64,000 nt of DNA from Candidatus Omnitrophota bacterium (GTDB lineage Bacteria; Omnitrophota; Gorgyraeia; Duberdicusellales; 4484-171). The notes beneath the pieces are model-generated. The model searched no databases and was not told the origin of the DNA. It saw only the letters and a list, made by a program, of their open reading frames with translations. Within the stretch, counting starts at the first letter, position 1, and the number at the start of each line of letters is the position of its first letter. The translations under genes were made by a program, and so were the position numbers. This document shows positions 2,699 to 60,803 of the stretch, one piece after another. The stretch lies in NCBI GenBank assembly GCA_023134705.1, contig JAGLUN010000051.1, forward strand, positions 3,362-67,361. The letters are read 5' to 3'.

Positions 2699-3057
2699 CA
2701 CAGAAAAAAAGACACAGATAAACGCGGATTTTTTTAATTATGATTTAAAAGCGATATTTTCATATCAATCTTGTGAGAATCTCGTGAAAATTTTGTGGTT
2801 AAAAAATAATCCGCGTTAATCAGCTTAATACATTCCAATATGTGTTCTATCAATACTTTAACGTCTTTTTTCATAAAATAATCTCTTCTTCTTCTAATAT
2901 CTTTTCCTTAAGGAGAGAGTGAAGAGAAATATAGGTAACGATATTTTTACCTCCGGACAAAAATATAAGGTTGACATTTATAAAAATATAGTTGATAATT
3001 TAAAGCGAGAGATTTTGAATTTAAAAAAAGAAAGTGTGGTAGAAAATAAAAATTAAA

Positions 3058-3488
3058 TTGGGATTAATAAAAATTAAACACCTCGATTCAAGAGATAAAA
3101 GGAAGACCGAACGCCTTATGCTGGAGGGAAATCTTTGGGATAGGCTTGGTTTTTCTCAGAAATGGACCGGCCCTTTGCCTATAGAAAATATCAGCGGCGG
3201 CGGAATTAACTTCAGATATAAAAAAAGCTTTAAGAGAAATTCCGTGATAAATCCTATGATAGGTTTTCTTGGTGAAGGCGAACCTATAATCGTAAAAGGT
3301 AAAGTGACCTGGCCTAAGGCAATGCCTCCAGGCAAAACTTTAAACAATGAATTTTTACCGGGGGCTGCAAAACAGGCGTTAAGTTCTTCAAGATGGATTA
3401 TAATGACCGCCGCGAATTCATAGATTACTTTAGCGAAAAGGTCATTATTAAATACCTGGATGCCGAAGGCAAAATGGAATCAGAAAAA
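3058..3488 (+). pseudogene. PilZ paralog disrupted by a frameshift (G6 to G5 homopolymer) inside the duplicate copy
   Basis: It is identical in frame to the PilZ at 1131..1571 up to codon 101. From there the reading frame shifts, and the original C-terminus continues in another frame up to 3488. This could be a real pseudogene or a homopolymer sequencing error. Confidence 0.5.
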
Positions 3489-4300
3489 TGAGTTTAGTGA
3501 AAACTACTGCGGCAATATCCCGCGAGACGGATTTACGGACTTTTCTTGGACCTGTCGAGTATAGAGTTGTACGGAATAAAGAAGAGCTAAAGAAATCCTG
3601 CGCTCTCGTGTATAAAGAATACATAAAAAGAGGTTATATGGAAAAGAATTTTTCCGGGTTAAGGATTTCGATCTATAACGCTTTTCCTCAAACAACTACT
3701 TTCATTGCCATTGTCGAACAGGAAGTCATAGCCACAGCTACTATAATACCTGATCTTCCTTTTGGGCTGCCGATGGAGAAGACATACCATGAAGAACTTG
3801 AGAGATTCCGGAAGGACAACAAAAAGATTTGTCAGATATCTATGTTGGCCAGTGACAGCGAGCTTTTTAGCAGCGGAGCTTCAATGATGCTTCAGTCTAA
3901 AAAAATGTTTTTTGTTTTCTTTTTATTCAAACTTATGTTCGATTACGCTAAGAATATCCTTAACCTGGATAATGTATGTATTACAATAAATCCCAAACAC
4001 AATCCCACTTATGATTCTTTATTATTTAAAAATATGGGCGGATTAAAAACATATTCCGATGCCAATGGGGCACCCGCGATAGCAAAATTCCTGGATTTAA
4101 ATTCTGTCGAAACAGCCAGGATGTTTTTCTGGAGAAAAGCCGATCCTGAGAAATTTTCCGGCAAATTTATATTCAGCCATCAGGATTTAAAATACTTTTT
4201 CACCGAGAAAACAGATATCTTTAAAAACGCCACCCCTTTTCAACTAGATTGCCTTAAACGCTGCTATCCCGCTTACGACTTCTCAACGATTATTCCTTAA
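3488..4300 (+). CDS. Divergent paralog (270 aa, intact) of the GNAT-like N-acyl amino acid synthase-like protein
   Basis: It aligns over its full length to 1568..2410 with scattered substitutions and one 10-aa deletion. The frame is intact. Confidence 0.4.
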   Translation: MSLVKTTAAISRETDLRTFLGPVEYRVVRNKEELKKSCALVYKEYIKRGYMEKNFSGLRISIYNAFPQTTTFIAIVEQEVIATATIIPDLPFGLPMEKTYHEELERFRKDNKKICQISMLASDSELFSSGASMMLQSKKMFFVFFLFKLMFDYAKNILNLDNVCITINPKHNPTYDSLLFKNMGGLKTYSDANGAPAIAKFLDLNSVETARMFFWRKADPEKFSGKFIFSHQDLKYFFTEKTDIFKNATPFQLDCLKRCYPAYDFSTIIP

Positions 4301-4380
4301 GGATTTCACTTTGGATTATAATTTAAACTTTTATTTTCGGTTTTCTATTTTATGGTGTCTTGAATCTGGTATCTATTCAG

Positions 4381-4640
4381 AATTGATATTACGAGTATCT
4401 AGCATCCAGTATCGAGCTTCGCGTATCGCGTATCGAGCATCGCGTATTGCGTATCGAGTATCTAGCATCGAGGATCCAGGATCCAGGATCGAGGATCTAA
4501 AAGATTGTTCCTCATCTTTCGTCCCTCGTCCAAGTGAACGAAGTGAACGGTCGTCTCTCGTTCCTCGTTTTTCCTGTCCCCTCTCTTCTGTTCTCTAATT
4601 TTTATCTTCTAACGAGCATCTAGGATCAAGGATCTAAAAG
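4381..4640. repeat. Family-A composite intergenic repeat: CGCGTATCG-type octamer array, GATCCAGG/GATCGAGG units, then a CGTCCCTCGTC tract
   Basis: Tandem 8-9 bp units are read directly. The same composite recurs at 5521, 7834, 24496, 51271 and 57420. Confidence 0.8.
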
Positions 4641-4776
4641 GTTACATAAAGTTACTTAAAGTTACATAAGGTTACTTAAAGTTGCTTTAACGTGAAGCAA
4701 CCTTCCCTAACCTTAAGTAACGTTCTCAAAGTAACCTTCTTTAAGTAACCTTATTAGCCATCGACCATTGACTTCC
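4641..4776. repeat. Family-B element: imperfect palindrome built from GTTAC units phased every 10-11 bp, ending in GCCATCGACCATTGACTTCC
   Basis: The left arm is GTTACATAAAGTTACTTAAAGTTACATAAGGTTACTTAAAGTTGC. The centre is TTTAACGTGAAGCAACC. The right arm is the reverse-complement GTAACC units. Confidence 0.8.
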
Positions 4777-4801
4777 TTTGGGGTGTAGGGATAGAAGGGG
4801 C

Positions 4802-5143
4802 TTATTTCAAATATTCTTTTATTTTCAGCATTTTATTTTTTATATCCGGGATGTCCCGTAGTACAACTTCTAAAGTTAATTTCAAATCTATGCCGAAATA
4901 TTCATGTATAAGGATATCCCTCATACCGGCAATCTTTTTCCATGGAATCTCCGGATATTTTTCTTTTATGTCATCGGAAATATTCTTAACTGCTTCCCCG
5001 ATAATTTCGATACGGCGAATAACGGAATCCTGAAGCTGGACAGAGCCAAAAAAGTCATTGTCTGTTTTATCCCGCATATACTTTTCAACCAGCTCAATAG
5101 ATTCCAATATATGTTCTATCAATACTTTAACGTCTTTTTTCAT
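4802..5143 (-). CDS. hepT: HepT-like HEPN toxin (DUF86) of a HepT/MntA toxin-antitoxin pair
   Basis: It carries the Rx4HxY motif (RDILIHEY) and is 113 aa. It overlaps the upstream partner by 4 bp. Confidence 0.75.
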
Positions 5144-5427
5144 AAAATAATTTCTTGTTCTTCTAATATCTTTTCTTTAAGGAGGGGGTGAAGAGAAGCG
5201 TAGGTGACGATATCTACTTTTCTCCCCAGTAACTCCTGAAGTTCCAATTTTAAACCTACCAGATCTAATAAACTTTTTTTTTCTCCAAACTCAATAAGCA
5301 AATCAATATCACTTTCCTTTGTGATTTCGTTTCTTACAACCGAACCAAAAAGGGCGGCTTTTTTTACATTATGCTTTTTCAGTATTTTGTGAAAAACCTT
5401 TTTTATTTCATCAATCTGGATATCCAT
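5140..5427 (-). CDS. mntA: MntA-like minimal nucleotidyltransferase antitoxin
   Basis: It carries [17 protein letters not shown] (the GS...DxD nucleotidyltransferase motif). It is 95 aa and translationally coupled to hepT. Confidence 0.75.
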
Positions 5428-5636
5428 AAGTAGATTTGCTAAGGCACCCGTGAATAATAATGAAACAACTTAGTCCGATTATATAATAGCTTTATGTGCT
5501 TGTCAATAAAACCAGCGTTTTCTATTCGCGTATCGCATATCGAGGATCTAACAGATTATTCCTCCTCTCTCGTCCTTCATCTCTATATTCTTTACGAGTA
5601 TCGAGCATCGAGGATCTAGCATCAAGGATCTAAAAG

Positions 5637-5672
5637 GTTACATAAAGTTGCATAAAGTTACATAAGGTTGCG
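5637..5672. repeat. Family-B forward arm (GGTTACATAAAGTTGCATAAAGTTACATAAGGTTGCG) on the left of the four-helix-bundle gene
   Basis: It has the same phased GTTAC units as 4641..4690. The matching reverse arm lies at 6108..6225, on the other side of the gene. Confidence 0.7.
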
Positions 5673-6128
5673 TTTTTTTCGCAGCTTTGCGCCGGGGACT
5701 TTCCATGTTCCTTCCCGCTCCATCTTATACAAAGATTTAAGATATTGTCCAGTCATATAAGTCGCGCTTTGAAATAATTTCGAAAATGCGTCGAATTCTT
5801 TTTTGCTAATCAATCCGTCATCTTTGCAATCTTCAACATCGCCGCTTAATTCTTCTAAAGAACCCAGACTAATTCTAATGCTATGGATATATTCACCTAG
5901 AGTTCCTTTTCTATATCCCTCCCGTATATTTTGTTTTGCGCTTCTTGCGGCATCTCTCATTTGCGAAATCAGTCTTAGATGTATTGTTGAAAATCTTTTC
6001 GTTATTTTATGAATGAACTTACGTATTTGATAAATATCCTGATAAAATTTTAGCTTTTCATAGGCCAGAGTTTCCCGTCTTTCGTGTATTCTTTCGTCCA
6101 TTTCCTCTCTAACCTTCCCTAACCTCAA
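5658..6128 (-). CDS. Four-helix-bundle protein of the 23S rRNA intervening-sequence-associated family
   Basis: It carries ARSAKQNIREGYRKGT and SIRISLGSLEEL, the family core motifs (compare SxxNIAEG ... SxxExxxxL). It is 156 aa. Confidence 0.65.
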   Translation of the reverse strand: MRLGKVREEMDERIHERRETLAYEKLKFYQDIYQIRKFIHKITKRFSTIHLRLISQMRDAARSAKQNIREGYRKGTLGEYIHSIRISLGSLEELSGDVEDCKDDGLISKKEFDAFSKLFQSATYMTGQYLKSLYKMEREGTWKVPGAKLRKKRNLM

Positions 6129-6225
6129 GTAACTTTCTTAACGTAACCCTCTCAACGTAACCTTCTCTAACTTTAAGTAACTTTCTCAATGTACCCTTCC
6201 CCATGTAACCTTATGTACCCTTCCC
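6108..6225. repeat. Family-B reverse arm (GTAACC/TAACC units) on the right of the four-helix-bundle gene
   Basis: The sequence AACCTTCCCTAACCTCAAGTAACTTTCTTAACGTAACCCTCTCAACGTAACCTTCTCTAAC is nearly identical to 7783..7830 and 53880..53960. Confidence 0.75.
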
Positions 6226-6860
6226 TATCTAATGCGATAGCCCTCTACTATCTTCTCGAATTTTTTTTGAACACAAGAACGAATTCTTAAATTGGTTATT
6301 TTCCTTATCCATCCTTTCGCGTTCTTTAAATGAAATTGCTCTGAAAAATGCAGCTCAGGAAAATATCCAAACTGTTTTTTTTTACGGCAAGACAAATACA
6401 GGCTGTCAATTAAGGCCTTTTCAGGCTCAGCGATTAAGAATTCACCTTTTCCTTTAGACCAACAGAACCCGTCAAAGAATGAGGGGGCAATACGATGAAA
6501 AGAAAACACGCCTATTTTTGTTGATATAACTTTTGTATGAACCAGGGATGCGAGAGTAATTACTTGAGGTATTTGTTCAACTATTCCATAAAGATGTAGA
6601 GCACTCACAAAAGAAACATATGCCCTATGCCGGGGAAGTAGAAAAGGGATAATATTATAAGGGCTTACATATTTATCCCCCTTCTCATACCACAGGCCCC
6701 TATAAACTTTTACAAGAACACTCTCTTTTTCCAAATTATTCAAGGCCTGCGTTACAACAGACAAAGATTTACCGGAAAGGGCAGCGATTTCACGCGTCGT
6801 AAAAACTTTTCGGCCTAACTGCTTAATAAACTTTAAAACGGAACTTCTACGTTTTTCCAT
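6225..6860 (-). CDS. abiEi: AbiEi-like antitoxin/transcriptional regulator (N-terminal wHTH)
   Basis: It sits immediately downstream of an AbiEii-type nucleotidyltransferase and overlaps it. It has an N-terminal wHTH-like segment and is 211 aa. Confidence 0.5.
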   Translation of the reverse strand: MEKRRSSVLKFIKQLGRKVFTTREIAALSGKSLSVVTQALNNLEKESVLVKVYRGLWYEKGDKYVSPYNIIPFLLPRHRAYVSFVSALHLYGIVEQIPQVITLASLVHTKVISTKIGVFSFHRIAPSFFDGFCWSKGKGEFLIAEPEKALIDSLYLSCRKKKQFGYFPELHFSEQFHLKNAKGWIRKITNLRIRSCVQKKFEKIVEGYRIR

Positions 6861-7623
6861 TTATCAACTCATCTATAAAATTACACACCTTCAGTTTAAT
6901 CCCATCCCATACAGAACGCGTATCATACACATTCTGATCTTCGACAGAGAGATAAGAAACCACACTATCACGAAACTGTTCAAAACTGATTTCAAGTACA
7001 TTCTGATACGCCTTTTTTAAAATATTCTTTTCAATAAGTAATGCCCGGCTCTTGTCATATTGTGAACTCAAAAGATGAAGGTCAAAAACATCTCTTGCTT
7101 GAAGAAAAGCCCTTGTAACTAATGCTTTTATCTTTTGGCTCACCATAGAATCCGCGTCATAGTGAGGAACTAAAATCGGCGGCAGCTTATAGGCCCGCAA
7201 TACAGTATCCATAACTTCTTCTACCCGTACGCCTTCTTTAAAACCTCTCCTTGAAAATTCAATTTTAATAAATAAATCCTCTCCGCTTGCGGTTATCAAA
7301 TGGACTTTAAATGGCTGGGTAGTTTGTGTTTGCTTTGCTTTTTTTATATCCGGAGGAATTATCTTTTCAATACCAAAAGGTCTAAGTGTGTCCTGAAATG
7401 ATTGGGAATTAAGGACATTCATTACCATTTCAATAAGAGTATCAACGGCTACCCTTTCTACATCCAAATCTATATCTTCTGAGTAACGAATACTGTGAAA
7501 GAAAAAGCGCAAATTTACTCCACCCTTTAAAACATAGGTATCGGGTTTGAGCTTTCTCCCAAGCCATCGTAAGAATTCTAAATGAAATACCTCTCTTACT
7601 TGTAACGGGCTGTTTATTAGCAT
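6847..7623 (-). CDS. abiEii: AbiEii/AbiGii-family nucleotidyltransferase toxin (DUF1814)
   Basis: It carries LKGGVNLRFFFHSIRYSEDIDLDVE, matching the family signature LKGGTxL...R.SEDIDL. It is 258 aa. Confidence 0.7.
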   Translation of the reverse strand: MLINSPLQVREVFHLEFLRWLGRKLKPDTYVLKGGVNLRFFFHSIRYSEDIDLDVERVAVDTLIEMVMNVLNSQSFQDTLRPFGIEKIIPPDIKKAKQTQTTQPFKVHLITASGEDLFIKIEFSRRGFKEGVRVEEVMDTVLRAYKLPPILVPHYDADSMVSQKIKALVTRAFLQARDVFDLHLLSSQYDKSRALLIEKNILKKAYQNVLEISFEQFRDSVVSYLSVEDQNVYDTRSVWDGIKLKVCNFIDELINGKT

Positions 7624-7690
7624 TATAATTATGTATTATAGTTTAGTTATAACTAAATTTCAATACATTACTAAAAAGGTTAGATAAACG

Positions 7691-7833
7691 ATTACATAAA
7701 GTTATTTAAAGTTGCATTAACGTTACGTAACCTTCTTAACGCAACCTTCCCTAACCTTAAGTAACCTTCTCTAAGTAGCCTTCTCTACGTAACCTTCCCT
7801 AACCTCAAGTAACTTTCTTAACGTAACCTTCTC
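7691..7833. repeat. Family-B palindromic element with a short forward arm and a long reverse arm
   Basis: The sequence runs ATTACATAAAGTTATTTAAAGTTGCATTAACGTTACGTAACC, followed by phased GTAACC units. Confidence 0.8.
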
Positions 7834-7925
7834 ATCTCACTTGTATCTCTATATTCTTTGCGAGTATCTAGCATCGAGCATCCAGCATCTAAAGTGTTAT
7901 CCCTCATCTTTCGTCCCTCGTCTCT
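7834..7925. repeat. Family-A repeat segment (GCATCGAGCATCCAGCATC units, then CGTCCCTCGTC)
   Basis: It has the same units as 4396..4560. Confidence 0.7.
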
Positions 7926-8106
7926 TGAATTCCGGTGACTCAATGCTTAATTATTAACCACAAGATTGTAGAATCTGCAACAAACTTTTTAAAATCCTTT
8001 TCAAAATTCTCTTTTAGTGCTATTCTATAATTGTTTTACAAAGAAACGTAATAGTTTAATTATTCATTTTATGGGAGAGTAAACATTTAGGAGAAATTAG
8101 TTTTAT

Positions 8107-17839: not shown

Positions 17840-18035
17840 ATAGGGGTTTTTGTTAGTATTTTTTTATACACGCAGATTTTTTCGTATCGCGTATCGAGTA
17901 TCGCGTATTGCGTAAAGAAAGTCGATAGTTAATAGCTGATAGTGGGAAAAGTAAGGCGTTAAATAGTTTTACGAGTTAGCGAGTTGAACGAGTTTAACGA
18001 GTTTTAATGAAAAGGATAGAGGTTTTTTATGAAAA

Positions 18036-18140
18036 ATTGTAAAGTTTTTCGAATGTGTAAAGGAAAGCGACAGATTTCGTGGAAATATGCTTTGTGAAAT
18101 GTACTTCCTGAAATACATGGAAATATAGTTGAAATAAATT
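18036..18140 (-). promoter_or_regulatory. Upstream activator-like region with direct repeats of the TGAAATA/GGAAATA type; candidate enhancer for the sigma-54 activator
   Basis: It reads GGAAATATGCTTTGTGAAATGTACTTCCTGAAATACATGGAAATATAGTTGAAATAAAT. The same block is present at 19413..19630, 20690..20740 and 58040..58125. Confidence 0.45.
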
Positions 18141-18192
18141 GTCTGCCATAGGCTCTTCCAAAGGCAGATCCTCCTCATTATGGTGGGAAAAT

Positions 18193-18208
18193 CACGGGCA
18201 TGCCCGTG
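18193..18208. promoter_or_regulatory. Perfect 16-bp palindrome CACGGGCATGCCCGTG
   Basis: It is read directly. An identical copy lies at 19654..19669, at the same relative position in the next intergenic module. Confidence 0.5.
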
Positions 18209-18296
18209 GGGTGTTCCATTAACTTAATTCCCCCTTCTCCCTCGCGCCTATTTCTAAATTGGGATTTGTTTGTGAAGTATGAAGTGTAGAACACAA

Positions 18297-18336
18297 ACAA
18301 AAAGACAGAAGCTTTTATGCTTCTGTCTTTTTTATC
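18297..18336 (-). terminator. Intrinsic terminator hairpin (GACAGAAGC / GCTTCTGTC stem, flanking T/A runs) after the PEP-CTERM gene 18379..19134
   Basis: A 9-bp perfect stem with a 6-nt loop is flanked by T6 on the plus strand and by TTTTTGTTTGT on the minus-strand transcript. Confidence 0.6.
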
Positions 18337-18340
18337 TATT

Positions 18341-18395
18341 CTTCACGCGATACGCAACATGCGATATGCGATACGCATTTACGCGATACGTTTTC
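18341..18395. repeat. Family-A CGCGATACG array overlapping the last codons of the PEP-CTERM gene
   Basis: It reads CACGCGATACGCAACATGCGATATGCGATACGCATTTACGCGATACG. Confidence 0.7.
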
Positions 18396-19134
18396 TCCGC
18401 CTGAATCCCGCACCAGCTAATCCTATAAGCCCGGATCCAAGAAGAAGTATGGTTGCCGGTTCGGGGATAGGAGCTGTGTCGGCATCGTGGGAATATGGAG
18501 CGAAAACATCCTTCGACGTCCCGTTATCTTTATAGTAGGTGCCTGTAAGGTCAAAATGGATAAAAGAAAATATGGGGTTATAACTTATATCGTAAACCTG
18601 AATCTGTCCTAAGTCTTGTCCGTCACTTTCTGCAGGATTCCCCGGATTATAAGACAGGTCATAATTGTAAACAGTTGTCATTACGGCAAGAGGTGTAAAT
18701 AAAAAATCGTCGAGCTCCATAGAGGCATAATAAGTGAGATATATTCCATGAGGAGAAGTCCCTTCAGGTTGTCCGAAAGTTTCAAAATCATCTTTAAAGA
18801 GCTTTATGCCACCAATAGTGATAATCGGTGTTGTCTCTTCTTCAGTTGTCTCTTCTTCATAGGAAAGGTATTGATTTTCAAGGAGTGATATATGAAGTTT
18901 GACCTCGGTTATCTCAGTAAGAGTCCCATTTTTAGAGGCGCCCACGGCCCAGAGTTCAAAAGGATTATCGGTAGTAATCCATGTGTCTTCGCTTTTATCG
19001 GGAAACCAAGGGCTAACTTCATAATAAGTAGAATTAGGAATATAGAGTTGCAGTGCAGAAACAGCAAAAGCCGGAGTTGTAATGCCAAATACTAAAAATA
19101 GAAGCATTAAACCTTTCAACATACTTTTTTTCAT
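18379..19134 (-). CDS. Secreted PEP-CTERM-anchored protein
   Basis: It has the signal peptide MKKSMLKGLMLLFLVFGITTPAFA. Its C-terminus is IPEPATILLLGSGLIGLAGAGFRRRKRIA. Confidence 0.8.
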   Translation of the reverse strand: MKKSMLKGLMLLFLVFGITTPAFAVSALQLYIPNSTYYEVSPWFPDKSEDTWITTDNPFELWAVGASKNGTLTEITEVKLHISLLENQYLSYEEETTEEETTPIITIGGIKLFKDDFETFGQPEGTSPHGIYLTYYASMELDDFLFTPLAVMTTVYNYDLSYNPGNPAESDGQDLGQIQVYDISYNPIFSFIHFDLTGTYYKDNGTSKDVFAPYSHDADTAPIPEPATILLLGSGLIGLAGAGFRRRKRIA

Positions 19135-19210: not shown

Positions 19211-19756
19211 AAGGGGAATTTTGGGGGATGTTTTTTATAAACGATGCTTGATCCTCGATGCTGGATGCTAGATACTAGTAAAGAATAGAGATAAAAGTGA
19301 GATGATAAGGACGAGGGATGAGAAAAGCAAAAATTAGACTCAAGACTTAAGACTCAATAGAGAAAGTCATAAGGTCATAAAGCCAAAAGTTGCCGAAATT
19401 TGGGGGAAAATTGTAAAACTTTTCGAATGTGTAAAGGAAACCGACATGTTTCGGGGAAATATGCTTTGTGAAATGTACTTCCTGAAATACATGGAAATAT
19501 AGTTGAAATGAATAGAGATATATAGAAATATATAGTCCGCCAAGGCGGATCCGCCTCCGGCGGAAAATATATTGAAATATGGTTGAAATAAATTGTCTGC
19601 TATAGGCTTTTCCAAACAAAGGCAGATTCTTCTCGTATGTATGGCGGGAAGATCACGGGCATGCCCGTGGGATGTTCCATTAACTTAATTCCCCTCTCCC
19701 TCGCGCCTATTTTTAAATTGGGATTTTGTTTGTGAAGTATGTAGTGTGTGACATAA

Positions 19757-19795
19757 ACAAAAAGGCAGGAGCTTTTATGCTTCTGCCTTTTTTAT
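19757..19795 (-). terminator. Intrinsic terminator hairpin (AGGCAGGAGC / GCTTCTGCCT) after the PEP-CTERM gene 19857..20567
   Basis: It is a near-perfect stem with a following T-run. It is homologous to the hairpin at 18297..18336. Confidence 0.55.
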
Positions 19796-19856
19796 CTATT
19801 CTTCACGCATTAAGCGATGACCGAAGGGAATCCTGAGTATCCCCGACGGATACGCG

Positions 19857-20567
19857 TTACGAGGTATGTTTTTTTTGCCTGAATCCCGCGCCAATCAATC
19901 CCAAAAGCCCGGATCCAAGAAGAAGAATGGTTGCGGGTTCGGGGATGGGCGGAGTGCCTCTATATTCCAATCGAAAGGGAGTGTCTATATCAGCATGCCA
20001 GTTCCAACGATTATTACGTTCGTCTAGGTGATAGAATCCATCTCCGGTAGCAACCTTTGGTAAACGAAAGTCCGTATCGTCTGTTGTTGTGGCGGCATTT
20101 GAACCATTTAATCCGTAAAAACTAAGCCAATACTCACCGGAAGGAAGACCTAATGGAGTTGGGAGTGTGAATTCAATATCGTAAATTTTGTCAATAGTGG
20201 AAAAAGGGGCTATAGAACTTTGTAAAGCAGTGTAGTCACCAGGTATGAGTATTTGTTCATAAAAAGGAGAGGAAGTATCTGGCTTTCCAGAGCTAGAGTC
20301 GTTGTTAAAAATTGAAAATGTAAATTTTTCGAGTGAATAGTTTATAGTTATGCCTTCTTGAAACCAAACGGTATCTATTGTTGAATCCTGAGGAAGTGTG
20401 AAATCGTCGTAAATGCGCCACTTAGAAGGTGTAAAAGCTTCAGATGAGCGAAGACCTCCAGCAGATGTTCCGATGCCATTATCATAAATAATAATTGCGT
20501 CAGCCGTGCATGTGGAAATTATAATTACAAACATAGTTATAAAGAATATTAATATTCTTTTTCCCAT
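19857..20567 (-). CDS. Secreted PEP-CTERM-anchored protein
   Basis: It has a signal peptide. Its C-terminus is PIPEPATILLLGSGLLGLIGAGFRQKKHTS. Confidence 0.8.
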   Translation of the reverse strand: MGKRILIFFITMFVIIISTCTADAIIIYDNGIGTSAGGLRSSEAFTPSKWRIYDDFTLPQDSTIDTVWFQEGITINYSLEKFTFSIFNNDSSSGKPDTSSPFYEQILIPGDYTALQSSIAPFSTIDKIYDIEFTLPTPLGLPSGEYWLSFYGLNGSNAATTTDDTDFRLPKVATGDGFYHLDERNNRWNWHADIDTPFRLEYRGTPPIPEPATILLLGSGLLGLIGAGFRQKKHTS

Positions 20568-20642: not shown

Positions 20643-20741
20643 ATGAGGATGGATAGACGCAAATTATGAGATACGGTGAGATTGATAGCAATAATATAGT
20701 GGAAATATATAGAAATAGGTTGAAATATAGTTGAAATACAA

Positions 20742-20868
20742 GGTTACTTAAGGTTAGGGAAGGTTACGTAGGAAAGTTACATTGAGAAGGTTGCTTAAAG
20801 AAGGTTACTTCACGTCAACGTAACCTTAAGTAACTTTAAGTAACTTTATGTAACCTTATTTTAATTAA
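20742..20868. repeat. Family-B palindromic element in the opposite orientation
   Basis: It reads AAGGTTACTTAAGGTTAGGGAAGGTTACGTAGG...CACGTCAACGTAACCTTAAGTAACTTTAAGTAACTTTATGTAACC. Confidence 0.75.
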
Positions 20869-20931
20869 CTTCTGCAATCTTTTTTATCTATTTTTCCCGC
20901 GATACACAATACGCGATACGCGTTACGTTTT

Positions 20932-22296
20932 TCATCCAATTCCGTATTTCTTCATCAAATCATACAGGGTGGGGCGGGTGACTCCGAGCATCTTCGCGGC
21001 CAGGCTTACATTCTCTTTGCTTTCATCTAAGGCTTTTTTGATAAGCTGAATTTCCATATTCTCGCGGGCTTCTTTTAAAGAAAGTTTCCCTGAATTTGAA
21101 TCTTCTCTATCGCCTCCGCCAAAGCCAAGCTCTGAAGAAATAATAAAAGAATTCTCTGCCAGGATAAAAGCTCTACGGACTCTATTTTCCATTTCTCTTA
21201 CATTACCCGGCCAGCTATAACTGTTCATTAAATCTTTACATTCTTTAGTAAAGCCCTTTATGGATTTGACCGGAGATTCTTCGCGATACTTATTAAGGAA
21301 ATAAGCAGCTAAAAGCAGTACATCTTCTCCTCTTTCCCGCAAAGGGGGGATTTGAAAGTTTATAACACTTAGCCGGTAATATAGATCTTCTCTGAACAGG
21401 CCTTGTTTAATCTTTTTCTTTAAATCGCTGTTAGTCGCGGCAATGATTCTTAGATTGAGCTCTATCGGATTATTCCCTCCAACGCGTTCTATAACATGTT
21501 CCTGGAGAAATCTTAAAATTTTCACCTGTAATCCAAGACTCATCTCACCGATTTCATCTAAGAAAACCGTGCCGGTATCAGCTATTTCCAATTTCCCAAT
21601 CCTTTTTATATGAGCATCGGTAAACGCGCCTTTTTCGTGGCCGAATAGTTCACTTTCTAAAAGATTCTCGGGAATCGCTCCGCAGTTTATTACCACAAAA
21701 GGGTGTTTTCCTCTTGGACTTAGGTAATGGATTGCTTTTGCCACTAATTCTTTTCCTGTGCCGCTTTCTCCGGTAATTAAAACCGCGGCATCGGTAGGCG
21801 CTACTCTTCTTATCAATTTAAAAACTTCTTTTATCGCCGGAGAACTGCCTATCATATCTTCAAATTTAAACTTATTCTGTAATTGTTCGGATAAACGCCG
21901 GTTTTCTTCCTCTAATTCCCGCAAGTATACGGCTCTTTTTAATATCACTTTTAATTCTTCGATTTTTACCGGCTTTGAATAATAATCAAACGCTCCTTTG
22001 TTTATAGATTCCAAGGCAATATCTTTTGTGTCATTTCCGGTTATCATAATTACTTTAATAAAAGGGTCATTATTTTTAATTTCCTCTAAAATTTCTATCC
22101 CTTCTTTCCGGTTTTTATTTAACGGGTCTAAATTAATGTCTAAAGCCGCTAGTTCAAATTTTTGTTCTCTAATTACTTTCAAGGCTTCCGGTTTATTTGA
22201 AGCAGTCAGGACTCCATAATCTCCTTCTAAAGCCCATTTTAGCTGTTTAAGGATACCTTCATCGTCGTCGACGATCAAAATTTTAGTTTTTGCCAT
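20932..22296 (-). CDS. prsR: Sigma-54-dependent response regulator (NtrC family; PEP-CTERM-box regulator PrsR type)
   Basis: It has a receiver domain (ILIVDDDEG ... D54-like), an AAA+ domain (GESGTGKE Walker A, and GAFTDA, a variant of GAFTGA) and a C-terminal Fis-type HTH. It lies downstream of prsK and next to sigma-54-promoted PEP-CTERM genes. Confidence 0.8.
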
Positions 22297-24495: not shown

Positions 24496-24700
24496 GATTT
24501 TTTCGTATGCTTATCGCGTATCGAGTATCGCGTATCGAGCATCCAGTATCTAAAAGCTCGTCCCTCGTCTCTTCGTCCCTCATTTTTCGTTTTTCCTGTC
24601 CTCTATTCTCTGATTTCTGTCTTCCAACGAGTATCCAGCATCGAGCATCTAGCATCTAAAGTTGGCCATCGGTTCCTTCGCCCATTGACTTTCTTTTAAC
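24496..24700. repeat. Family-A composite repeat (CGCGTATCGAG array, CGTCCCTCGTC tract, GCATCGAGCATCTAGCATC units, then a variant of the GCCATCG...CCATTGAC terminus)
   Basis: It is read directly and is collinear with 4396..4776. Confidence 0.8.
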
Positions 24701-48508: not shown

Positions 48509-48889
48509 TTAAAGAACAAACCTTTTAACTCCACAACTTTTATTGCCGAAATTAACTAATAATCCGACTTTCAAATTAGATGCTCTTAAATAAGAAAGTA
48601 TCTGGTATTTAAAAACATCGGGAATATTGCCTGTTAAGGCTTTAACTTCAACTATAACTTTATCTTCTATGATTAAGTCTAATCTAAGTCTGCCAACATT
48701 CTCTCCTTGATACGAAATCGTAAAACTTTTCTCAGTCTGATACCTTAAGCCTTCCTGTTTTAAAGCTATCTCTAAGGCATTATGGTATATACGCTCATTA
48801 AATCCCGGCCCTAATTCAGAATGAACCCTATAACAACAACCTATTATTTTTTCTGTAAGTGAATCATTATCTTTCATCTGTGTAATCAT
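48509..48889 (-). CDS. GxxExxY-family protein (PD-(D/E)xK-like small selfish/insert gene)
   Basis: It carries LGPGFNERIYHNAL (G..E..Y) and the family end ...GVKRFVL. It is 126 aa. Confidence 0.65.
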   Translation of the reverse strand: MITQMKDNDSLTEKIIGCCYRVHSELGPGFNERIYHNALEIALKQEGLRYQTEKSFTISYQGENVGRLRLDLIIEDKVIVEVKALTGNIPDVFKYQILSYLRASNLKVGLLVNFGNKSCGVKRFVL

Positions 48890-48965
48890 TTTTCATAATC
48901 TGCGTAATCATTTATTATAATCTGTGCCATCATTTTTTATTATCTGTGTAATCTTCCTTTTAATC
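48890..48965. repeat. Array of ATCTGTGTAATC-type units (right flank, inverted relative to the left flank)
   Basis: It reads ATAATCTGCGTAATCATTTATTATAATCTGTGCCATCATTTTTTATTATCTGTGTAATCTTCCTTTTAATCTGTGTAATCA. Confidence 0.7.
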
Positions 48966-49850
48966 TGTGTAATCATTTATTCTAATAAATTTATCGGTAG
49001 ATTCCTCCCATTTTGGGATAGCGATATCTAATGTTTTTTTGATTTTTAAATTCGACATAGCGGAAAACATCGGCCTCTTTGCTTTTGTTTTAAAAGTATC
49101 TATTGAAACGGGAACAATTATATTTTCAGTACCCATTCTATTAATAAAATATCTGGCTAATTCATGTCTTGAAGCATAGCCGGTATTAGTTAGATGGAAT
49201 AAGCCCGTTATGCCTTTTTCTAAACTTAATAATGTAACATTTACAATATTTTCTGTATATGTAGGAACTGAGACTTCATCAGATGTTATTTTAAGCACTT
49301 TAGATTTTTCAGCCCACTGTCTTAACTTGTATAAAAAGTTTTGTTTCCCCTTTCCGATAACCCAACTTAATCTGAATATCAAAAAATCAGATAAACACTC
49401 TTTGATTGCCTGTTCTCCCTCTAATTTGCTTTTACCATATACATTAAGAGGATTTGTCATGTCTTCTTCTACATATAAATCCTGTTTTTGTCCATCAAAC
49501 ACATAGTCTGAACTATAGTGGACTAAAAATATTTTATTTTCTTTACAGATTCTTGCTAAATTCTCGACAGCCTGACTATTTACTAAATGTGCTAATTTTG
49601 AATTTTCTTCGGCTTCATCAACTAGATTATATGCGGCGCAATTAATAATGACATTGGGTTTAGCTTCATTTATTATTGTTCTTGTCTTTGTGAAATCAGT
49701 AATATCCCATTCTTCTTCCGATGGAGCAGCAAAATCAATTTTTCTTTCATGGAAAATTTTCTGAAATTCTTTACTTAATTGCCCTGAAGCGCCTGAAATT
49801 AAAAATTTATTATTCTTCATCGTAAATAAAGCTTTTTTTAATGTTATCAA
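48960..49850 (-). CDS. rfbD: dTDP-4-dehydrorhamnose reductase
   Basis: It has a Rossmann N-terminus (LISGASGQL), is 296 aa and lies in the rfb gene order. Confidence 0.8.
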   Translation of the reverse strand: MITLKKALFTMKNNKFLISGASGQLSKEFQKIFHERKIDFAAPSEEEWDITDFTKTRTIINEAKPNVIINCAAYNLVDEAEENSKLAHLVNSQAVENLARICKENKIFLVHYSSDYVFDGQKQDLYVEEDMTNPLNVYGKSKLEGEQAIKECLSDFLIFRLSWVIGKGKQNFLYKLRQWAEKSKVLKITSDEVSVPTYTENIVNVTLLSLEKGITGLFHLTNTGYASRHELARYFINRMGTENIIVPVSIDTFKTKAKRPMFSAMSNLKIKKTLDIAIPKWEESTDKFIRINDYTD

Positions 49851-51270: not shown

Positions 51271-51420
51271 TCTCTATTATCGTATATCGTATCGCGTATT
51301 GCGTATCGAGTATCGAATATCTATCATCTACTCTCCATTTTCTGTTCTCGCCCTACATTTCTCGTCCTTCGTCTTTTCGTCTCTCGTCCCTCGTTTCTTA
51401 TCCCCCTTCACTTCCGTCCA
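51271..51420. repeat. Family-A composite repeat
   Basis: It has the CGTATCGCGTATTGCGTATCGAGTATCG array, then the TCGTCC/CTCGTCCCTCGT tract. Confidence 0.8.
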
Positions 51421-52757
51421 ACACTCACATAAGTAAATCCTAATCTTTTCATCCTCTCCGGCTCATAGATGTTCCGGGTGTCAATTAGTACCGGTTTTTT
51501 TAACAATTTTTTTGCTTTTGCTAAGTCGAGATACCGGAATTCGTTCCATTCGGTAAGGATAACCAGAGCGTCGCTGTCTTCCATAACCTCATAGGCGTCA
51601 TTACAATACCTGATATCCTTCAGTACTTTTTTTGCCGCGTTCATTGCCACCGGGTCAAACGCTTTTATTTGAGCGCCGTCTTTTTTTAAACCTTCGATTA
51701 TAGTAATAGCCGCGGATTCCCGAATATCATCAGTGTTAGGTTTAAAGGCTAAGCCTAATATGCCAATGGTTTTATTTTTAAGATTGCCTATTATCTTTTT
51801 GATTTTTTCTATCATCCATTTTTTTTGCCGCTCATTTACCGCTACAGTTGCTTTCACGATTTTTAAGTCATAACCCACGTTTTTGGCAATATCAATTAAA
51901 GCAAGGGTATCTTTTGGGAAGCAGGACCCTCCGTAGCCGGGGCTGGCATGAAGGAATTTAAAGCCGATTCTTCTATCGAGCCCGATGCCTTTAGCAATCA
52001 TGTTTACGTCAGCTCCTACCTTTTCGCAGATATTAGCCATTTCATTGATGAATGAAATTTTTGTCGCCAGAAACGCGTTTGCCGCGTATTTAATCATCTC
52101 GGATGTTTCGAGTGTGGTGAATACCATGGGGGTTTCGAATAAATAAAACGGCCGGTAGATATCTTTCATAATCGCTCTTGCCTGATCACTTTCCGTGCCT
52201 ACGACAATCCTATTCGGACGCATAAAGTCTTCGATTGCCGAACCTTCCCTCAGGAATTCAGGATTTGATACCAGGTCAAAATCCGGCATCCGGGGATCAA
52301 TATCCGGATTCTTAGCTAATCGTTCCGGAGAAAATTTTTCATCTAATGTTTTCTGAATCATTACGCGGACATTGGCGCAGGTTCCCATTGGAACAGTGCT
52401 TTTCATCACAATAACTTTATACTCATCCATATGTTCAGCTATTGCTACGGCAACCGCGTTTATGTTTGATATGTCAGGCGCGCCATCACCGCTATTAGGT
52501 GTATTTACCGCGATATAAAGAGCTAAAGACGATTGGATGCTTTCTTCTAAATTTGTAGTAAAGCTTAGCCGTTTTTCTTTTAGATTCCTATGGACTAATT
52601 CCTCTAACCCCAGTTCATAAATGGGAATAATGCCTTTTCGCAGTTTCTTGATTTTTTCCTCATCTTTATCCACGCATATTACCGTATGCCCGAAATCCGC
52701 CAGACAGGTTCCTGTTACTAAGCCCACATAGCCGGCACCAAAAATTGAGATATTCAT
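51408..52757 (-). CDS. ugd: UDP-glucose 6-dehydrogenase
   Basis: It has the N-terminal NAD-binding motif FGAGYVGLVTG and the catalytic segment GGSCFPKD. It is 449 aa. Confidence 0.85.
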   Translation of the reverse strand: MNISIFGAGYVGLVTGTCLADFGHTVICVDKDEEKIKKLRKGIIPIYELGLEELVHRNLKEKRLSFTTNLEESIQSSLALYIAVNTPNSGDGAPDISNINAVAVAIAEHMDEYKVIVMKSTVPMGTCANVRVMIQKTLDEKFSPERLAKNPDIDPRMPDFDLVSNPEFLREGSAIEDFMRPNRIVVGTESDQARAIMKDIYRPFYLFETPMVFTTLETSEMIKYAANAFLATKISFINEMANICEKVGADVNMIAKGIGLDRRIGFKFLHASPGYGGSCFPKDTLALIDIAKNVGYDLKIVKATVAVNERQKKWMIEKIKKIIGNLKNKTIGILGLAFKPNTDDIRESAAITIIEGLKKDGAQIKAFDPVAMNAAKKVLKDIRYCNDAYEVMEDSDALVILTEWNEFRYLDLAKAKKLLKKPVLIDTRNIYEPERMKRLGFTYVSVGRK

Positions 52758-52760
52758 GTT

Positions 52761-53720
52761 TTAAACCGCCTCCTTCTTTCCAAGCGAAATTTTTTTTGAA
52801 AAATATTCTATTGTTCTTTTTAAACCCTCATCGATATCAATCCGGGGTTTCCATTTTAAAATTTTAGTTGCTTTTGTGATATCGGGTTTTCTTCTTTTGG
52901 GATCGTCTTGGGGCAATTTAAAAAATGTTATTTTTGACGATAAGCCGGTTATTTCCATTACTTTTTTCGCGAGCTCAAGCATCGTATATTCACTTGGATT
53001 CCCTAAATTAATAGGTAACAAATATTTAATGTCCATGAGTTTTAAAATTCCTTCAATTAAATCATCCACGAAACAAAAGGATCTGGTTTGCGTACCCTTT
53101 CCATATATTGTTAATGCCTTCCCTTTCAAAACCTGCACAATAAAATTAGAAACGACTCTTCCATCATCAAGCTGCATATTCGGCCCATAGGTATTGAAAA
53201 TACGGACAATTCGAATTTCAATATTATGTTGACGGTGATAGGCGTAGGTTAATGCTTCAGCCCCTCTTTTGCTTTCATCATAACAACTACGCTCACCAAT
53301 CGTATTGACATTACCCCAATATTCTTCAGGCTGCGGATGAATTAGCGGGTCTCCATACACTTCAGAAGTCGATGCGAGAAAAAACTTTGCCTTCTTGAGC
53401 TTTGCTAATCCTAAACAATTATGTGTACCTAAAAGCCCGGATTTTAAGGTCTTAATCGGATGCGCGAGATAATCGTTAGGGGAAGCAATCGCGGCAAAAT
53501 GTAAAACCCAGTCAATATCTTCTTCTATTACAAACGGCTTTGATATATCATGCTCAATAAGTGTGAAGTTGTTGTTCCCTATCAATCCCCGCACATTTTC
53601 CTTGGATCCGGTGATAAAATTATCTATACATACTACCCGATCCCCTCGATCGAGAAACTTCTTGCATAAATGGGATCCAATAAAACCCGCGCCGCCGGTA
53701 ATTAAGATTTTCATTTTCAA
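52761..53720 (-). CDS. UDP-glucuronate decarboxylase (UDP-xylose synthase)
   Basis: It carries ILITGGAGFIGSHL and YDESKRGAE, and closely resembles UXS-type SDRs. It is 319 aa. Confidence 0.75.
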   Translation of the reverse strand: MKMKILITGGAGFIGSHLCKKFLDRGDRVVCIDNFITGSKENVRGLIGNNNFTLIEHDISKPFVIEEDIDWVLHFAAIASPNDYLAHPIKTLKSGLLGTHNCLGLAKLKKAKFFLASTSEVYGDPLIHPQPEEYWGNVNTIGERSCYDESKRGAEALTYAYHRQHNIEIRIVRIFNTYGPNMQLDDGRVVSNFIVQVLKGKALTIYGKGTQTRSFCFVDDLIEGILKLMDIKYLLPINLGNPSEYTMLELAKKVMEITGLSSKITFFKLPQDDPKRRKPDITKATKILKWKPRIDIDEGLKRTIEYFSKKISLGKKEAV

Positions 53721-53740
53721 TCTCCTTTGAGTATCAAGTA

Positions 53741-53990
53741 TTGCGTATCGTGTGAAGAAAGGTTACATAAAGTTACTTAAAGTTAAGGTTACTTAAAGTT
53801 ACATAAGGTTACTTAAAGTTGCTTAAGGTTGCGTTAACGTGAAGTAACCTTCTCAAAGCAACCTTCTCTAACCTTCCCTAACCTCAGGTAACTTTCCCAA
53901 AGTAACCTTCTCTGCGTAACCTTCTTAATGTAACCTTCTTAATGTAACCTTCTCTAAGTACCTTATCAGCTATCGACCATCGACTTCCTT
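53741..53990. repeat. Family-B element (the largest copy) with the terminus CAGCTATCGACCATCGACTTCC
   Basis: It reads AAGGTTACATAAAGTTACTTAAAGTTAAGGTTACTTAAAGTTACATAAGGTTACTTAAAGTTGCTTAAGGTTGCGTTAACGTGAAGTAACC, followed by nine reverse GTAACC/TAACC units. Confidence 0.85.
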
Positions 53991-55510: not shown

Positions 55511-55957
55511 TCATAGAACAAATCTTTTTATTCCTAATTTTAATTTTTCAACGTTAAAATTAAGCAATAACCCAACTTTAATTTTTGCCAATTTCATATA
55601 AGTTAGTATTTGAGCTTCGTGTATGCCTAAAATTTTATCAACGCTTTTTAATTCTATAATAAGCTTATTTGCTATAAGAATATCGATACGATATCCACAA
55701 TCTAATTTAATCCCGTTATATTCTATCGGTAAAGAACATTGTAGAGTAAACGGTATATCTGATAGTTTTAATTCATGAGCTAAACATTGTTCATAAGCCG
55801 ATTCAAGTAAGCCTGGTCCAAGAGCCCGGTGTACTTTTATGGCACAACCTATAACTTTATTTGATAATTCATCAAATTTTACTTCGTGTCCTTCGTGTTT
55901 AAAATATTTATTTACCGGCACTTCTTCCATACTCATCTTCCAGCCTCTGGATATCAT
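55511..55957 (-). CDS. GxxExxY-family protein (second copy)
   Basis: It carries LGPGLLESAYEQCL and the end GIKRFVL. The start is probably internal (M8 or M10), so the overlap with manC may be shorter. Confidence 0.6.
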   Translation of the reverse strand: MISRGWKMSMEEVPVNKYFKHEGHEVKFDELSNKVIGCAIKVHRALGPGLLESAYEQCLAHELKLSDIPFTLQCSLPIEYNGIKLDCGYRIDILIANKLIIELKSVDKILGIHEAQILTYMKLAKIKVGLLLNFNVEKLKLGIKRFVL

Positions 55958-57368: not shown

Positions 57369-57620
57369 ATATCGTCAATGGTTAATAGTCGATAGTCAAT
57401 GGTCGATAGTCTATGGGGAGAAAGTAACGCGTATTGCGTATCCTTCGGGGATACTCAGGATTCTCTCCTTCGACTGTGCTCAGGACAAGTTTCGGTCATC
57501 GCATATCGAGCATTCAGCATCCAAACTTTCTGACTTCTGTCCTCTGACTTCTGAAGCCTGTCTCCTCCCACTTCTCTATCGAGCATCTAAACTTTCTATT
57601 TACTGCCTTCTTCCCTCTGA
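57361..57620. repeat. Family-A composite repeat with GTCGATAGTCAATGG units
   Basis: It has TCGTCAATGGTTAATAGTCGATAGTCAATGGTCGATAGTCTATGG, then CGTATTGCGTATCC and GAGCATTCAGCATCC/GAGCATCTAAAC units. Confidence 0.75.
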
Positions 57621-57678
57621 AGTTTTAGGCCTTGAGTCTTGGGTCTTGGGAAGAAGGCTTTTTCTCCCCTGTCCTGCT

Positions 57679-58039: not shown

Positions 58040-58140
58040 ATTGAAATATGCTTCGCGAAATATACTTCGTGAAATATACTTCATGAAATATATAGATATA
58101 GATAGAAATAAATGGAAATATGTTGAAATAAATAGTCCGC
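58040..58140 (-). promoter_or_regulatory. GAAATAT direct-repeat block (14-bp period) upstream of the small PEP-CTERM gene, homologous to the blocks at 18036 and 19413
   Basis: It reads CGCGAAATATACTTCGTGAAATATACTTCATGAAATATATAG...GGAAATATGTTGAAATAAATAGTCCGCCATTGGCGG. Confidence 0.45.
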
Positions 58141-59581: not shown

Positions 59582-59832
59582 TGTTTTCTCCTTATTTAAT
59601 AGATATTGTCAAAATTATTTAAGTTTAAATAACCAATCACCAAGATATACCCTTACGGGCACAGGCAAGATACAAACAAATTCCAATCTTCAATAATCAA
59701 TAACCAAAATACCTGATTTTGTTGAATTTTTTGGTTATTGAAATTTGGTCATTGGTTATTGTTTGGTTATTGTTTCTTGTGTCTTGGTTATTCATTCCTT
59801 CTGTGCCCTCTGTGGTTTTTTCATAACTTATC

Positions 59833-60567: not shown

Positions 60568-60590
60568 AAGTTTCGTATCCTCCGGGAATA

Positions 60591-60800
60591 CTCAGGATTC
60601 CCTTCGGTCATTTCGTATTGCGTATCGCGTATCGCGTATTGCGTTATAAATTCCTTTTACTAACTTTATACCTTTTTTCCAAACTCTTAAATCTCTAAAA
60701 TATTTTATTTTGTCTTCCATTTTGTCATATTTGTGTTTTGTACGCGATACGCGATACTCGTTACGCGATACGCTATTATTGCTTTCATAAATTTCGTATT
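60591..60800. repeat. Family-A arrays in inverted orientation bracketing a 5' fragment (about 60650..60740) of a four-helix-bundle gene
   Basis: 60611..60645 reads CGTATTGCGTATCGCGTATCGCGTATTGCG. 60745..60790 reads GTACGCGATACGCGATACTCGTTACGCGATACG. 60650..60740 is about 90 percent identical to 61092..61180. Confidence 0.75.
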
Positions 60801-60803
60801 GCG

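Follow-up and report, generated by a model that had tools for sequence, protein, structure and literature searches.

Many gene boundaries in a 64,000-nt stretch of a Candidatus Omnitrophota bacterium genome (assembly GCA_023134705.1, contig JAGLUN010000051.1, positions 3,362 to 67,361; this whole stretch is referred to here as the window) are occupied by short periodic arrays that we term family A. These arrays are heptanucleotide tandem repeats of the class known as short tandemly repeated repetitive sequences (STRR) or long simple sequence repeats (LSSR), as they consist of head-to-tail 7-nt units and are dispersed and mainly intergenic. Several are joined by non-repeat blocks into a recurring composite, and two lie in frame within an enzyme gene. 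The repeat class is known; the Omnitrophota host and the composite are not described in the searchable literature, a collection in which nothing was found on Omnitrophota with heptamer, heptanucleotide or tandem repeats. With slightly better than even confidence, we read family A as degenerate heptanucleotide satellite DNA that originated by slippage, is homogenised ectopically and is retained where it is harmless.

Repeat unit, period and structure

A first-pass annotation, based on the letters of the window, listed arrays at 4381-4640, 5521-5636, 7834-7925, 24496-24665, 51271-51420 and 57420-57620, with shorter ones at 17881, 18341, 20897, 60611 and 61181. Tandem arrays are present at each of these sites. 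Their units had been described as having an 8-bp period; the period is in fact 7. Tandem Repeats Finder (TRF) reported period 7 (with multiples 14 and 21) at every listed site, and a self-match scan of the window (≥75%) gave 50 scan windows at period 7 versus 0 at periods 5, 6, 8, 9, 11 and 12, an excess which indicates that the arrays are not due to chance. Phased runs of ATC on the + strand comprise 51 units at period 7 and at most 6 at any other period that is not a multiple of it. When read in register, the units are ATC-N-M-G-N (ATCGAGC, ATCGCGT, ATCCAGG, ATCTAGC) and CGTAT[C/T]G, and an array usually terminates in ATCTAAA(AG). The supposed octamer CGCGTATCG is one heptamer unit plus two bases, while the CGTCCCTCGTC tract does recur but is itself a degenerate heptamer array (CTCGTCC, identified by TRF).

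The curated family-A set comprises 21 arrays with a total of 788 nt. Nineteen of the 21 lie mostly outside open reading frames (ORFs), although non-ORF sequence makes up only 11.8% of the window (binomial p = 4e-16). As the annotation had noted, the arrays are GC-rich in AT-rich DNA (46.7% GC versus 35.6% for the window). The alternating pyrimidine-purine runs that it ascribed to the CGCGTA units are short, the longest in any array being 8 nt, and Z-DNA tracts were rejected on a criterion of approximately 10-12 nt or more of uninterrupted alternation.

It had also been suggested that the arrays act as terminators. The family-A arrays and composites fold no better than dinucleotide shuffles on either strand (z-scores of -1.2 to +0.75), and a terminator scan found no terminator in the arrays; its sole match was a hairpin in a non-repeat insert (4545-4563) of the first composite. 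Based on these two results, family A was rejected as a set of terminators or folded RNAs. In Rfam searches, the window had no match that reached the gathering score and 4300-8100 had none with E ≤ 1; a permissive threshold yielded only sub-threshold, terminator-driven matches near 18.3 and 19.8 kb. Four-base-pair palindromes or restriction-like sites are not enriched in the units (36% versus 38% in shuffles, for a set that includes a few viral loci).

The composite and its copies

The proposal that arrays and other motifs recur in the same order at several sites was borne out by an alignment of seven copies. The order runs from an array ending ATCTAAA(AG) (ATCTAAAAG) through a TTCCTCNTCTYTCGTCC block and a CT-rich stretch ending ACGAG to a second array with the same terminus. 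Between five and seven copies in the window are collinear. Module order and completeness vary (H-P-Q-H, Q-H-P and P-Q-H, in which P and Q are non-array blocks), and mean column identity over the seven aligned copies is 45%. The block CCTCNTCTYTCGTCC occurs three times versus an expectation of 0.03, and the composite's non-array blocks were absent from 91 loci of other genomes. Because these shared blocks are specific to this genome, the copies share descent within it and did not expand independently. The composite was also considered as one diverged long array, but this was rejected as the offsets (120, 165 and 68 nt by hand check) are not multiples of 7.

Composite c1 lies between the convergent genes for FeeM (+) and HepT (-). 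Its first array (4392-4501, +) has approximately 15 units of the types CGCGTAT, ATCGAGC, ATCTAGC and ATCCAGG and ends in ATCTAAAAG; it is followed by CT-rich P/Q blocks (4502-4612, +; TTCCTCATCTTTCGTCCCTCGTCC ... TTTTTCCTGTCCCC...CTAACGAG) and a second array (4613-4640, +; ATCTAGG ATCAAGG ATCTAAA). Composite c2 (5521-5636, +; array, P block, Q block, array) has on one side the stop codon (5658) of a 23S-rRNA-IVP (23S-IVP) gene and on the other, immediately downstream, a minus-strand sigma-70 promoter (5506-5478) of perfect consensus (TTGACA, 17 nt, TATAAT) that is upstream of an MNT/HepT toxin-antitoxin pair. Composite c3 (7835-7925, +) occupies a divergent intergenic region and consists of a Q block, an array (7861-7893) and a P block. 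Composite c4 (24512-24660, +; array 24512-24554, CTCGTCC tract, Q block, array 24628-24660) is 18 nt upstream of a histidine kinase start (24495), with the stop codon of the upstream gene (24649) inside its second array. Composite c5 (51278-51400, +) has an array (51278-51332) and a CTCGTCC-type tract between the UGDH stop (51408) and an RmlA-like start (51259). Composite c6 is reversed (19243-19330, -) and comprises a P-like block, a Q block and an ATCNAGN array (19243-19278). In composite c7 (57420-57620, +), a CGTATTG/CGTATC array is split by a 59-nt version of a dispersed element and is followed by ATCGAGC units, a TTCTGAC heptamer tract and then ATCGAGC ATCTAAA.

Arrays in related genomes

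The UDP-glucose dehydrogenase (UGDH) of the window is 100% identical to a protein of a metagenome-assembled 'Candidatus Omnitrophica bacterium' genome, and on this match an origin from cyanobacteria was rejected. The next relatives are 74-75% identical. Two of the loci concerned, L009 and L011 (74%), carry short arrays of 7- or 8-nt units directly upstream of starts, and their ATTGCGT and GGATCTA units are also found in the window: ATTGCGT/CGTATCG is common to L009, L048/L049 and the window, and GGATCTA is found in L009. L009 and L010 are the same sequence, so this pair offers no strain comparison.

A metagenome scan with the WbpP-like epimerase encoded in the window gave 80 orthologous loci totalling 798 kb. 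These contain 39 arrays at period 7, 3 at period 8, 6 at period 10 and 11 at period 14, with 0 at periods 4-6, 9, 11 and 13 (over periods 4-15, those other than 7 range from 0 to 11). By manual count, approximately 19 of 30 intergenic arrays in the relatives have their end immediately 5' of a Shine-Dalgarno sequence and no more than 50 nt upstream of a start in the same orientation, and approximately 10 start ≤35 nt past a stop codon. Several are inverted pairs. A four-unit degenerate ATCBMGN pattern has matches in at least 120 viral contigs, where we estimate, using an assumed collection size, a chance expectation well below one; most of these are perfect (ATCCAGA)5-type arrays and a few are mixed arrays resembling family A.

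Placement relative to genes

The window is an exopolysaccharide/PEP-CTERM locus with glycan genes and with genes for sugar-nucleotide enzymes, for PEP-CTERM proteins and for a sigma-54 activator together with a histidine kinase. Scattered among these are small accessory genes, including three 23S-IVP genes and one fragment, a PD-(D/E)XK_3 gene, HepT/MNT and AbiE. The arrays are concentrated near the accessory and PEP-CTERM genes, and none lies in the two long operons of closely spaced genes (8.1-16.7 kb and 26.3-51.2 kb). Arrays flank 23S-IVP, HepT/MNT and AbiE genes. The link with toxin-antitoxin and selfish genes, for which the annotation proposed a test, holds in the window, but it is inseparable from the simpler observation that most of the longer spacers contain arrays. 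No tRNA or tmRNA gene was found, a BLASTN search of 4300-8100 against plasmids gave no match, and a scan of genome contigs with a radical-SAM protein matched only distant, unrelated taxa.

Arrays had been reported to abut the 3' ends of minus-strand genes. This is correct for the stops at 24649, 18379, 20932 and 61215 (the first, second and last of which lie within arrays), but arrays are equally regular upstream of starts, lying 7-40 nt from the start codons at 24495, 51259, 53720, 60567 and 61163. Starts and stops are adjoined with the same regularity because the arrays fill the whole spacer. Apart from the composites, the intergenic arrays are as follows. A short CGTATCG/CGTATTG array is found at 17883-17914 (+). 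A TACGCGA-orientation array (18345-18390, -) follows an intrinsic-terminator-like hairpin and overlaps the stop of a PEP-CTERM gene (18379-19134), a CGTATC array at 19800-19865 (-) is split by a 30-nt dispersed element, and the sigma-54 activator gene (20932-22296) has a CGCGATA array (20898-20927, -) 5 nt from its stop. Another short array (53727-53757, +) is directly 5' of the AGGAG Shine-Dalgarno sequence of the gene at 52761-53720 (-).

The remaining intergenic arrays cluster near 61 kb. At 60568-60644 (+), upstream of an NTP-transferase start (60567), CGTATC is followed by the 30-nt element (60575-60612) and a CGTATTG/CGTATCG array (60614-60644). A TACGCGA array at 60741-60773 (-) separates a 23S-IVP gene from a duplicated fragment of that gene's 5' end, and another (61181-61232, -) is 18 nt upstream of the 23S-IVP start (61163) and overlaps the DAGK stop (61215). 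This region (60556-61240) contains a local duplication of approximately 440 nt in which the 5' end of the 23S-IVP gene occurs twice (60639-60734 and 61082-61177, 91% identical), and the NTP-transferase gene has its initial codons duplicated (ATGAAAGCAATAAT, approximately 60556-60570 and 60775-60790). A family-A array is located at every junction of this duplication.

Arrays within enzyme genes

Three arrays in the window are located within coding sequences: two of family A, at 58844-58875 and 59410-59444, and one of a sister family, at 56838-56883. Both family-A arrays are in the WbpP-like epimerase gene (58604-59581, -), which is 71-72% identical to the L009 and L011 orthologues. The CnATCGA array (59410-59444, -) encodes loop 1 of the protein and the TACGCGA/TACGCAA array (58844-58875, -) encodes loop 2, each in frame. 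By a DNA periodicity criterion, more than 20 orthologues have a heptamer array at loop 1, with units that include ACGCAAT, ACCTACA, ACACAAT, CTCCAAA, CTATSAG, CTATACG, AGTCGAC and GGACCGT; some of the epimerase orthologues carry perfect arrays (ACACAAT x5, CTACGAC x4). Many others have small palindromes at loop 1, always in frame, of the types GGGACTGTCCC, CATTGCGAGG...GCAATC and AAACAGTTTCC...GGAAACTGTTT. The loop is 18-20 residues long in proteins without an array and approximately 22 in those with one. The final array unit blends into the native Y-E-L-I codons, as local slippage would produce.

In 77 of the 80 epimerase ORFs the matched region is intact, the three exceptions are apparently tblastn extensions beyond the stop codon, and no ORF is interrupted at an array. 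In a neighbour-joining tree, which as a single-gene tree is not robust, the array-bearing epimerases are scattered. In the ManC gene (55908-57368, -), the heptamer array at 56838-56883 (GGTCTAT/GGTCTGT) encodes a 15-residue insert (TIDHRPQTIDLKSKN) relative to the GDP-mannose pyrophosphorylase structure 2x5s. The unit family of this ManC array (ACAGACC) is also that of epimerase loop 2 in L047-L049. A palindromic element translated as RHCEE...RSADVAIS / RHCEEPRRGDEAI occurs in frame in L009 (7530-7630, loop 2) and in L028, L035 and L057 (loop 1); present in several metagenome contigs, it looks like a small hairpin repeat that has become widely dispersed.

The hypervariable, repeat-encoded loop of this conserved epimerase is the most interesting by-product of the analysis. 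It constitutes a natural comparative system, with dozens of orthologues that are 60-97% identical and yet differ in the array or palindrome found at a single codon position, and metagenomes alone could allow the rates and mechanisms of array turnover (slippage, conversion or insertion) to be measured from it.

Turnover and possible copying of arrays

The annotation called for a check of conservation and copy number between strains. Variation between strains was found in relatives, in three pairs of closely similar loci. L048 and L049 are 99.6% identical over 7.2 kb, and indels of ≥4 nt between them (34 and 5 nt) occur only in one array module. Over approximately 60 nt, the L049 allele of this module is nearly identical to a paralogous module at a distance of 1.7 kb, and the L048 version is shorter and different, which suggests, from sequence comparison, ectopic conversion or copying between arrays. 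L027 and L037 have flanks that are approximately 97% identical and loop 1 arrays of equal length in which all units differ (CTATSAG versus CTATACG). L087 and L091 are also approximately 97% identical, but at loop 1 one of the two has palindromes and the other a GGACCGT array. The suggestion that arrays are recombination hot spots receives indirect support from the L048/L049 indels, from the position of arrays at duplication junctions and from their flanking of accessory genes.

The dispersed element of approximately 30 nt (CnTCGGGrATACTCAGGATTCCCTTCGGTC) is found at 57437-57495, 19822-19851 (minus) and 60575-60612, in each case at the same insertion point after CGTATC, and one copy carries an extra internal segment of 29 nt. 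It was absent from 211 other loci, and its predicted hairpin is weak and not significant.

An independent assembly of the same sample provided a further comparison. Logan contig L008 (SRR13892601) matches 51352-53817 of the window at 100% identity and terminates within repeat arrays at both ends. This identity, with ends inside arrays, fits multi-copy repeats and argues against invented sequence.

Comparison with known repeats

For 35 years, heptamer arrays have been known from cyanobacteria and a small number of other groups, with no agreement on their origin or role. The units of STRR1-3 are CCCCAGT, TTGGTCA and CAACAGT. As the ATCNMGN and CGTATYG units differ from these, family A was rejected as a strict cyanobacterial STRR1-3; the TTGGTCA/TTGGTTA array at 59726-59792, which is not of family A, has a unit that we take to be STRR2. 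Small dispersed repeats are said to have been found by Elhai in 2008 embedded in the heptamer arrays of Nostoc punctiforme. The 30-nt element at a fixed unit position in three heptamer arrays of the window resembles these, although it has three copies only, a weak hairpin and no sequence relation to them. Ogata reportedly described in 2000 the palindromic elements of Rickettsia as selfish repeats that lie in frame within protein genes. Here too, short repeats are translated in surface loops of conserved proteins with the frame kept, but these are tandem heptamers as well as small palindromes, and they are exchanged at one loop among close relatives.

The repetitive extragenic palindromic (REP) units of enterobacterial REP sequences and bacterial interspersed mosaic elements (BIMEs) are palindromic hairpins mobilised by RAYT transposases. 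Family A shares with these the mosaic, collinear combination of short motifs in intergenic operon spacers. Unlike them, it consists of unstructured direct repeats, and there is no RAYT among the approximately 30 window ORFs scanned.

Heptamer LSSRs are known in cyanobacteria, Beggiatoaceae, Xanthomonas and some Bacteroidetes, with strains differing in 7-nt steps and period 7 attributed to polymerase slippage (PMC4679880, PMC4692102). As far as the cyanobacterial STRRs and 7-nt LSSRs (Mazel 1990; Mrazek 2007) are summarised in those two papers, they share with family A head-to-tail heptamers, many dispersed and mainly intergenic arrays, over-representation of period 7 and mixed unit families within a spacer; in the same summaries the published repeats are assigned no role, and polymerase slippage is proposed as their source. 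Family A differs in its Omnitrophota metagenome-assembled genome (MAG) host, its ATCNMGN/CGTATYG units, its strong degeneracy and its association with conserved non-repeat blocks. The TAACTGA repeats that MacGregor (2015, PMC4679880) described in marine Beggiatoaceae, cyanobacteria and Bacteroidetes are likewise heptamers found a few to tens of nucleotides upstream of starts, sometimes over upstream stops; a minority are within ORFs at tolerant positions, and contigs often end in them. Family A has other units with no single dominant one and is of mixed orientation, and its in-ORF copies are in internal loops of conserved enzymes whereas those of TAACTGA are at protein ends. The GGGNATC repeats of Xanthomonas and Nostoc (Rehm 2015, PMC4692102) are intergenic, ATC-containing heptamers whose length and sequence vary at the same loci among close relatives, as in family A, but they are G-rich and quadruplex-forming, while family A lacks G-tracts and significant structure.

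The uncultivated, Omnitrophota-like genomes show the same syndrome of period-7 dominance, start and stop adjacency, mixed unit families, elements nested in arrays and in-frame protein copies. Heptamer arrays are therefore not a cyanobacterial peculiarity. In practical terms, such arrays fragment short-read assemblies, and in the annotation of MAGs they produce spurious ORFs and change where genes end.

Origin and possible roles

If family A is degenerate satellite DNA, its arrays would arise and turn over through slipped-strand replication in a 7-nt register. Ectopic recombination or gene conversion would then copy the arrays among loci together with the blocks that flank them, which would generate the recurring collinear composite; from the relatives, we directly infer one such copying event. 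Arrays that harm the host would be purged. Those present today lie in spacers, 5' of ribosome-binding sites or at stops, a distribution of which selection may be the cause; in genes, only in-frame versions would persist, in a few insertion-tolerant protein loops. Such arrays may have no required function, and their effects would be mainly on spacer length and as a substrate for local rearrangement and cassette insertion.

Several observations weigh against this reading. The nearest UGDH homologue is as distant as noted above and the epimerase cluster has a single member, so strain variation was seen only in relatives. The clear difference between L048 and L049 (39 nt) is not a clean multiple of 7, and pure slippage was therefore not observed. 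Start-adjacent arrays are mostly TACGCNA on the coding strand (approximately 10 versus 2 in a manual count of non-independent cases), and related CGTAT[C/T/A]G units recur in genomes whose proteins are ≤72% identical; this strand bias and sharing of units fit a strand-specific function in the 5' untranslated region (5'-UTR) better than a neutral satellite. Finally, one epimerase loop is used repeatedly by different elements in many lineages, which hints at site targeting and for which slippage and selection offer no obvious explanation.

The main rival holds that a nucleic-acid-binding protein recognises the arrays as cis-acting sites in 5'-UTRs or between cistrons, which would form a post-transcriptional regulon like that proposed for the Beggiatoaceae TAACTGA repeats; binding arrays had been among the roles suggested in the annotation. 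We regard this as unlikely, while taking it seriously. Candidate binders would be S1, Csp, a CsrA-like protein or, by analogy, a HutP/TRAP-like oligomer reading NAG triplets 7 nt apart. Several aspects of position are as this model would predict: arrays end 7-40 nt upstream of starts and directly 5' of the Shine-Dalgarno sequence (24495, 51259, 53720 and 61163, and also in relatives), and in the long spacers of relatives they are near the downstream start and not the upstream stop. The coding-strand TACGCNA bias near starts (approximately 10 of 12, tentatively), the related units common to divergent genomes and the agreement with the position described in PMC4679880 point the same way. However, over all sites the arrays occur in both orientations relative to transcription, and they are also found in a convergent spacer (4392-4640), after stops and inside coding sequences. 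The units are highly degenerate, and no candidate binding protein was identified.

A doubtful possibility is that an active, sequence-directed process in this lineage installs or exchanges 7-nt arrays and small palindromes at particular sites, the epimerase surface loop among them. Such a process might be recombinase-mediated or RNA-templated. If it exists, the arrays would be traces left, outside cyanobacteria, by a tiny mobile or conversion system that also remodels protein loops in frame.

Slightly more doubtful is the idea that the composite is a non-autonomous mobile element of the BIME type or a miniature inverted-repeat transposable element (MITE), moved by a transposase or recombinase whose gene lies in another part of the genome. 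The collinear copies with their genome-specific non-repeat blocks would suit such an element, as would the whole array module gained or replaced between the 99.6%-identical strains of a relative and the separate 30-nt element at the same unit position in three arrays. On the other hand, copy boundaries are ragged, the modules are permuted and the aligned copies are poorly conserved, at the mean column identity given above. Neither terminal inverted repeats nor target duplications are evident, the arrays lack palindromic structure, and the approximately 30 window ORFs scanned include no transposase, RAYT or reverse transcriptase.

We consider it improbable that the arrays are contingency loci, at which gain or loss of one unit would toggle polysaccharide genes (from within coding sequences) or retune promoter or ribosome-binding-site spacing (from intergenic positions). 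Seven is not divisible by 3, all of the window belongs to an exopolysaccharide/PEP-CTERM locus, and in-CDS (coding sequence) arrays are found in ManC and approximately 125 nt from the start of a surface-polysaccharide epimerase gene, some orthologues of which have the perfect arrays described above. Most arrays, including all of family A in the window, are nevertheless degenerate, so slippage should be slow. The intact state of the epimerase ORFs, with no frameshifted "off" allele seen, argues against switching, as do the presence of two arrays per gene and the occurrence of arrays in non-surface contexts.

It is very improbable that the arrays are assembly artefacts or that the contig consists of chimeric joins at repeats: although the assembly is a short-read MAG, and joins across arrays are not verifiable from assemblies given multi-copy arrays at which an independent assembly breaks, the Logan contig reproduces array-flank junctions at 100% identity, the in-CDS arrays preserve the frame of conserved enzymes, the same array class is found at equivalent positions in dozens of independent assemblies, and the order of sugar-nucleotide genes across arrays is functionally coherent.

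Other repeats in the window

A second repeat family consists of 10-mer arrays (AAGGTTACNT) facing inverted 14-mer arrays (GTAACCTTCTCAAN) between small accessory gene cassettes, and is found at 4636-4765, 5637-5669, 6110-6222, 7680-7834, 20740-20858 and 53759-53968. The 10-mers and 14-mers together (e.g. 4636-4765) fold into hairpins that are long but imperfect, with z-scores of -6.4 and -5.8 on the two strands, and they are distinct from family A. Heptamer families unlike family A in sequence (ATAGTCG, TTCTGAC, CTTGGGT, AGACTCA and TTGGTCA/TTGGTTA) are also present, with arrays at 57385-57416, 57528-57554, 57631-57650, 19336-19357 and 59726-59792. Other spacers hold AT-rich arrays of a 10-mer (GAAATATATA) and an array of a 14-mer (TGAAATATACTTCG), at 19484-19595, 20693-20738 and 58042-58135, as well as a tandem repeat of 22/44 nt (48862-48986).

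Two larger duplications were also observed. Two copies (84-93% identical) of a 300-400-nt non-coding module, at 18033-18355 and 19407-19815, are situated downstream of paralogous PEP-CTERM genes; at the end of each is a strong hairpin that resembles an intrinsic terminator (aaagacagaagcttttatgcttctgtctttttt), after which comes a TACGCGA array. A tandem duplication of approximately 1.4 kb (1026-2413 and 2947-4303, 93-96% identical, at a spacing of 1.9 kb) carries genes for a PilZ-domain protein and a FeeM-like N-acyl amino acid synthase.

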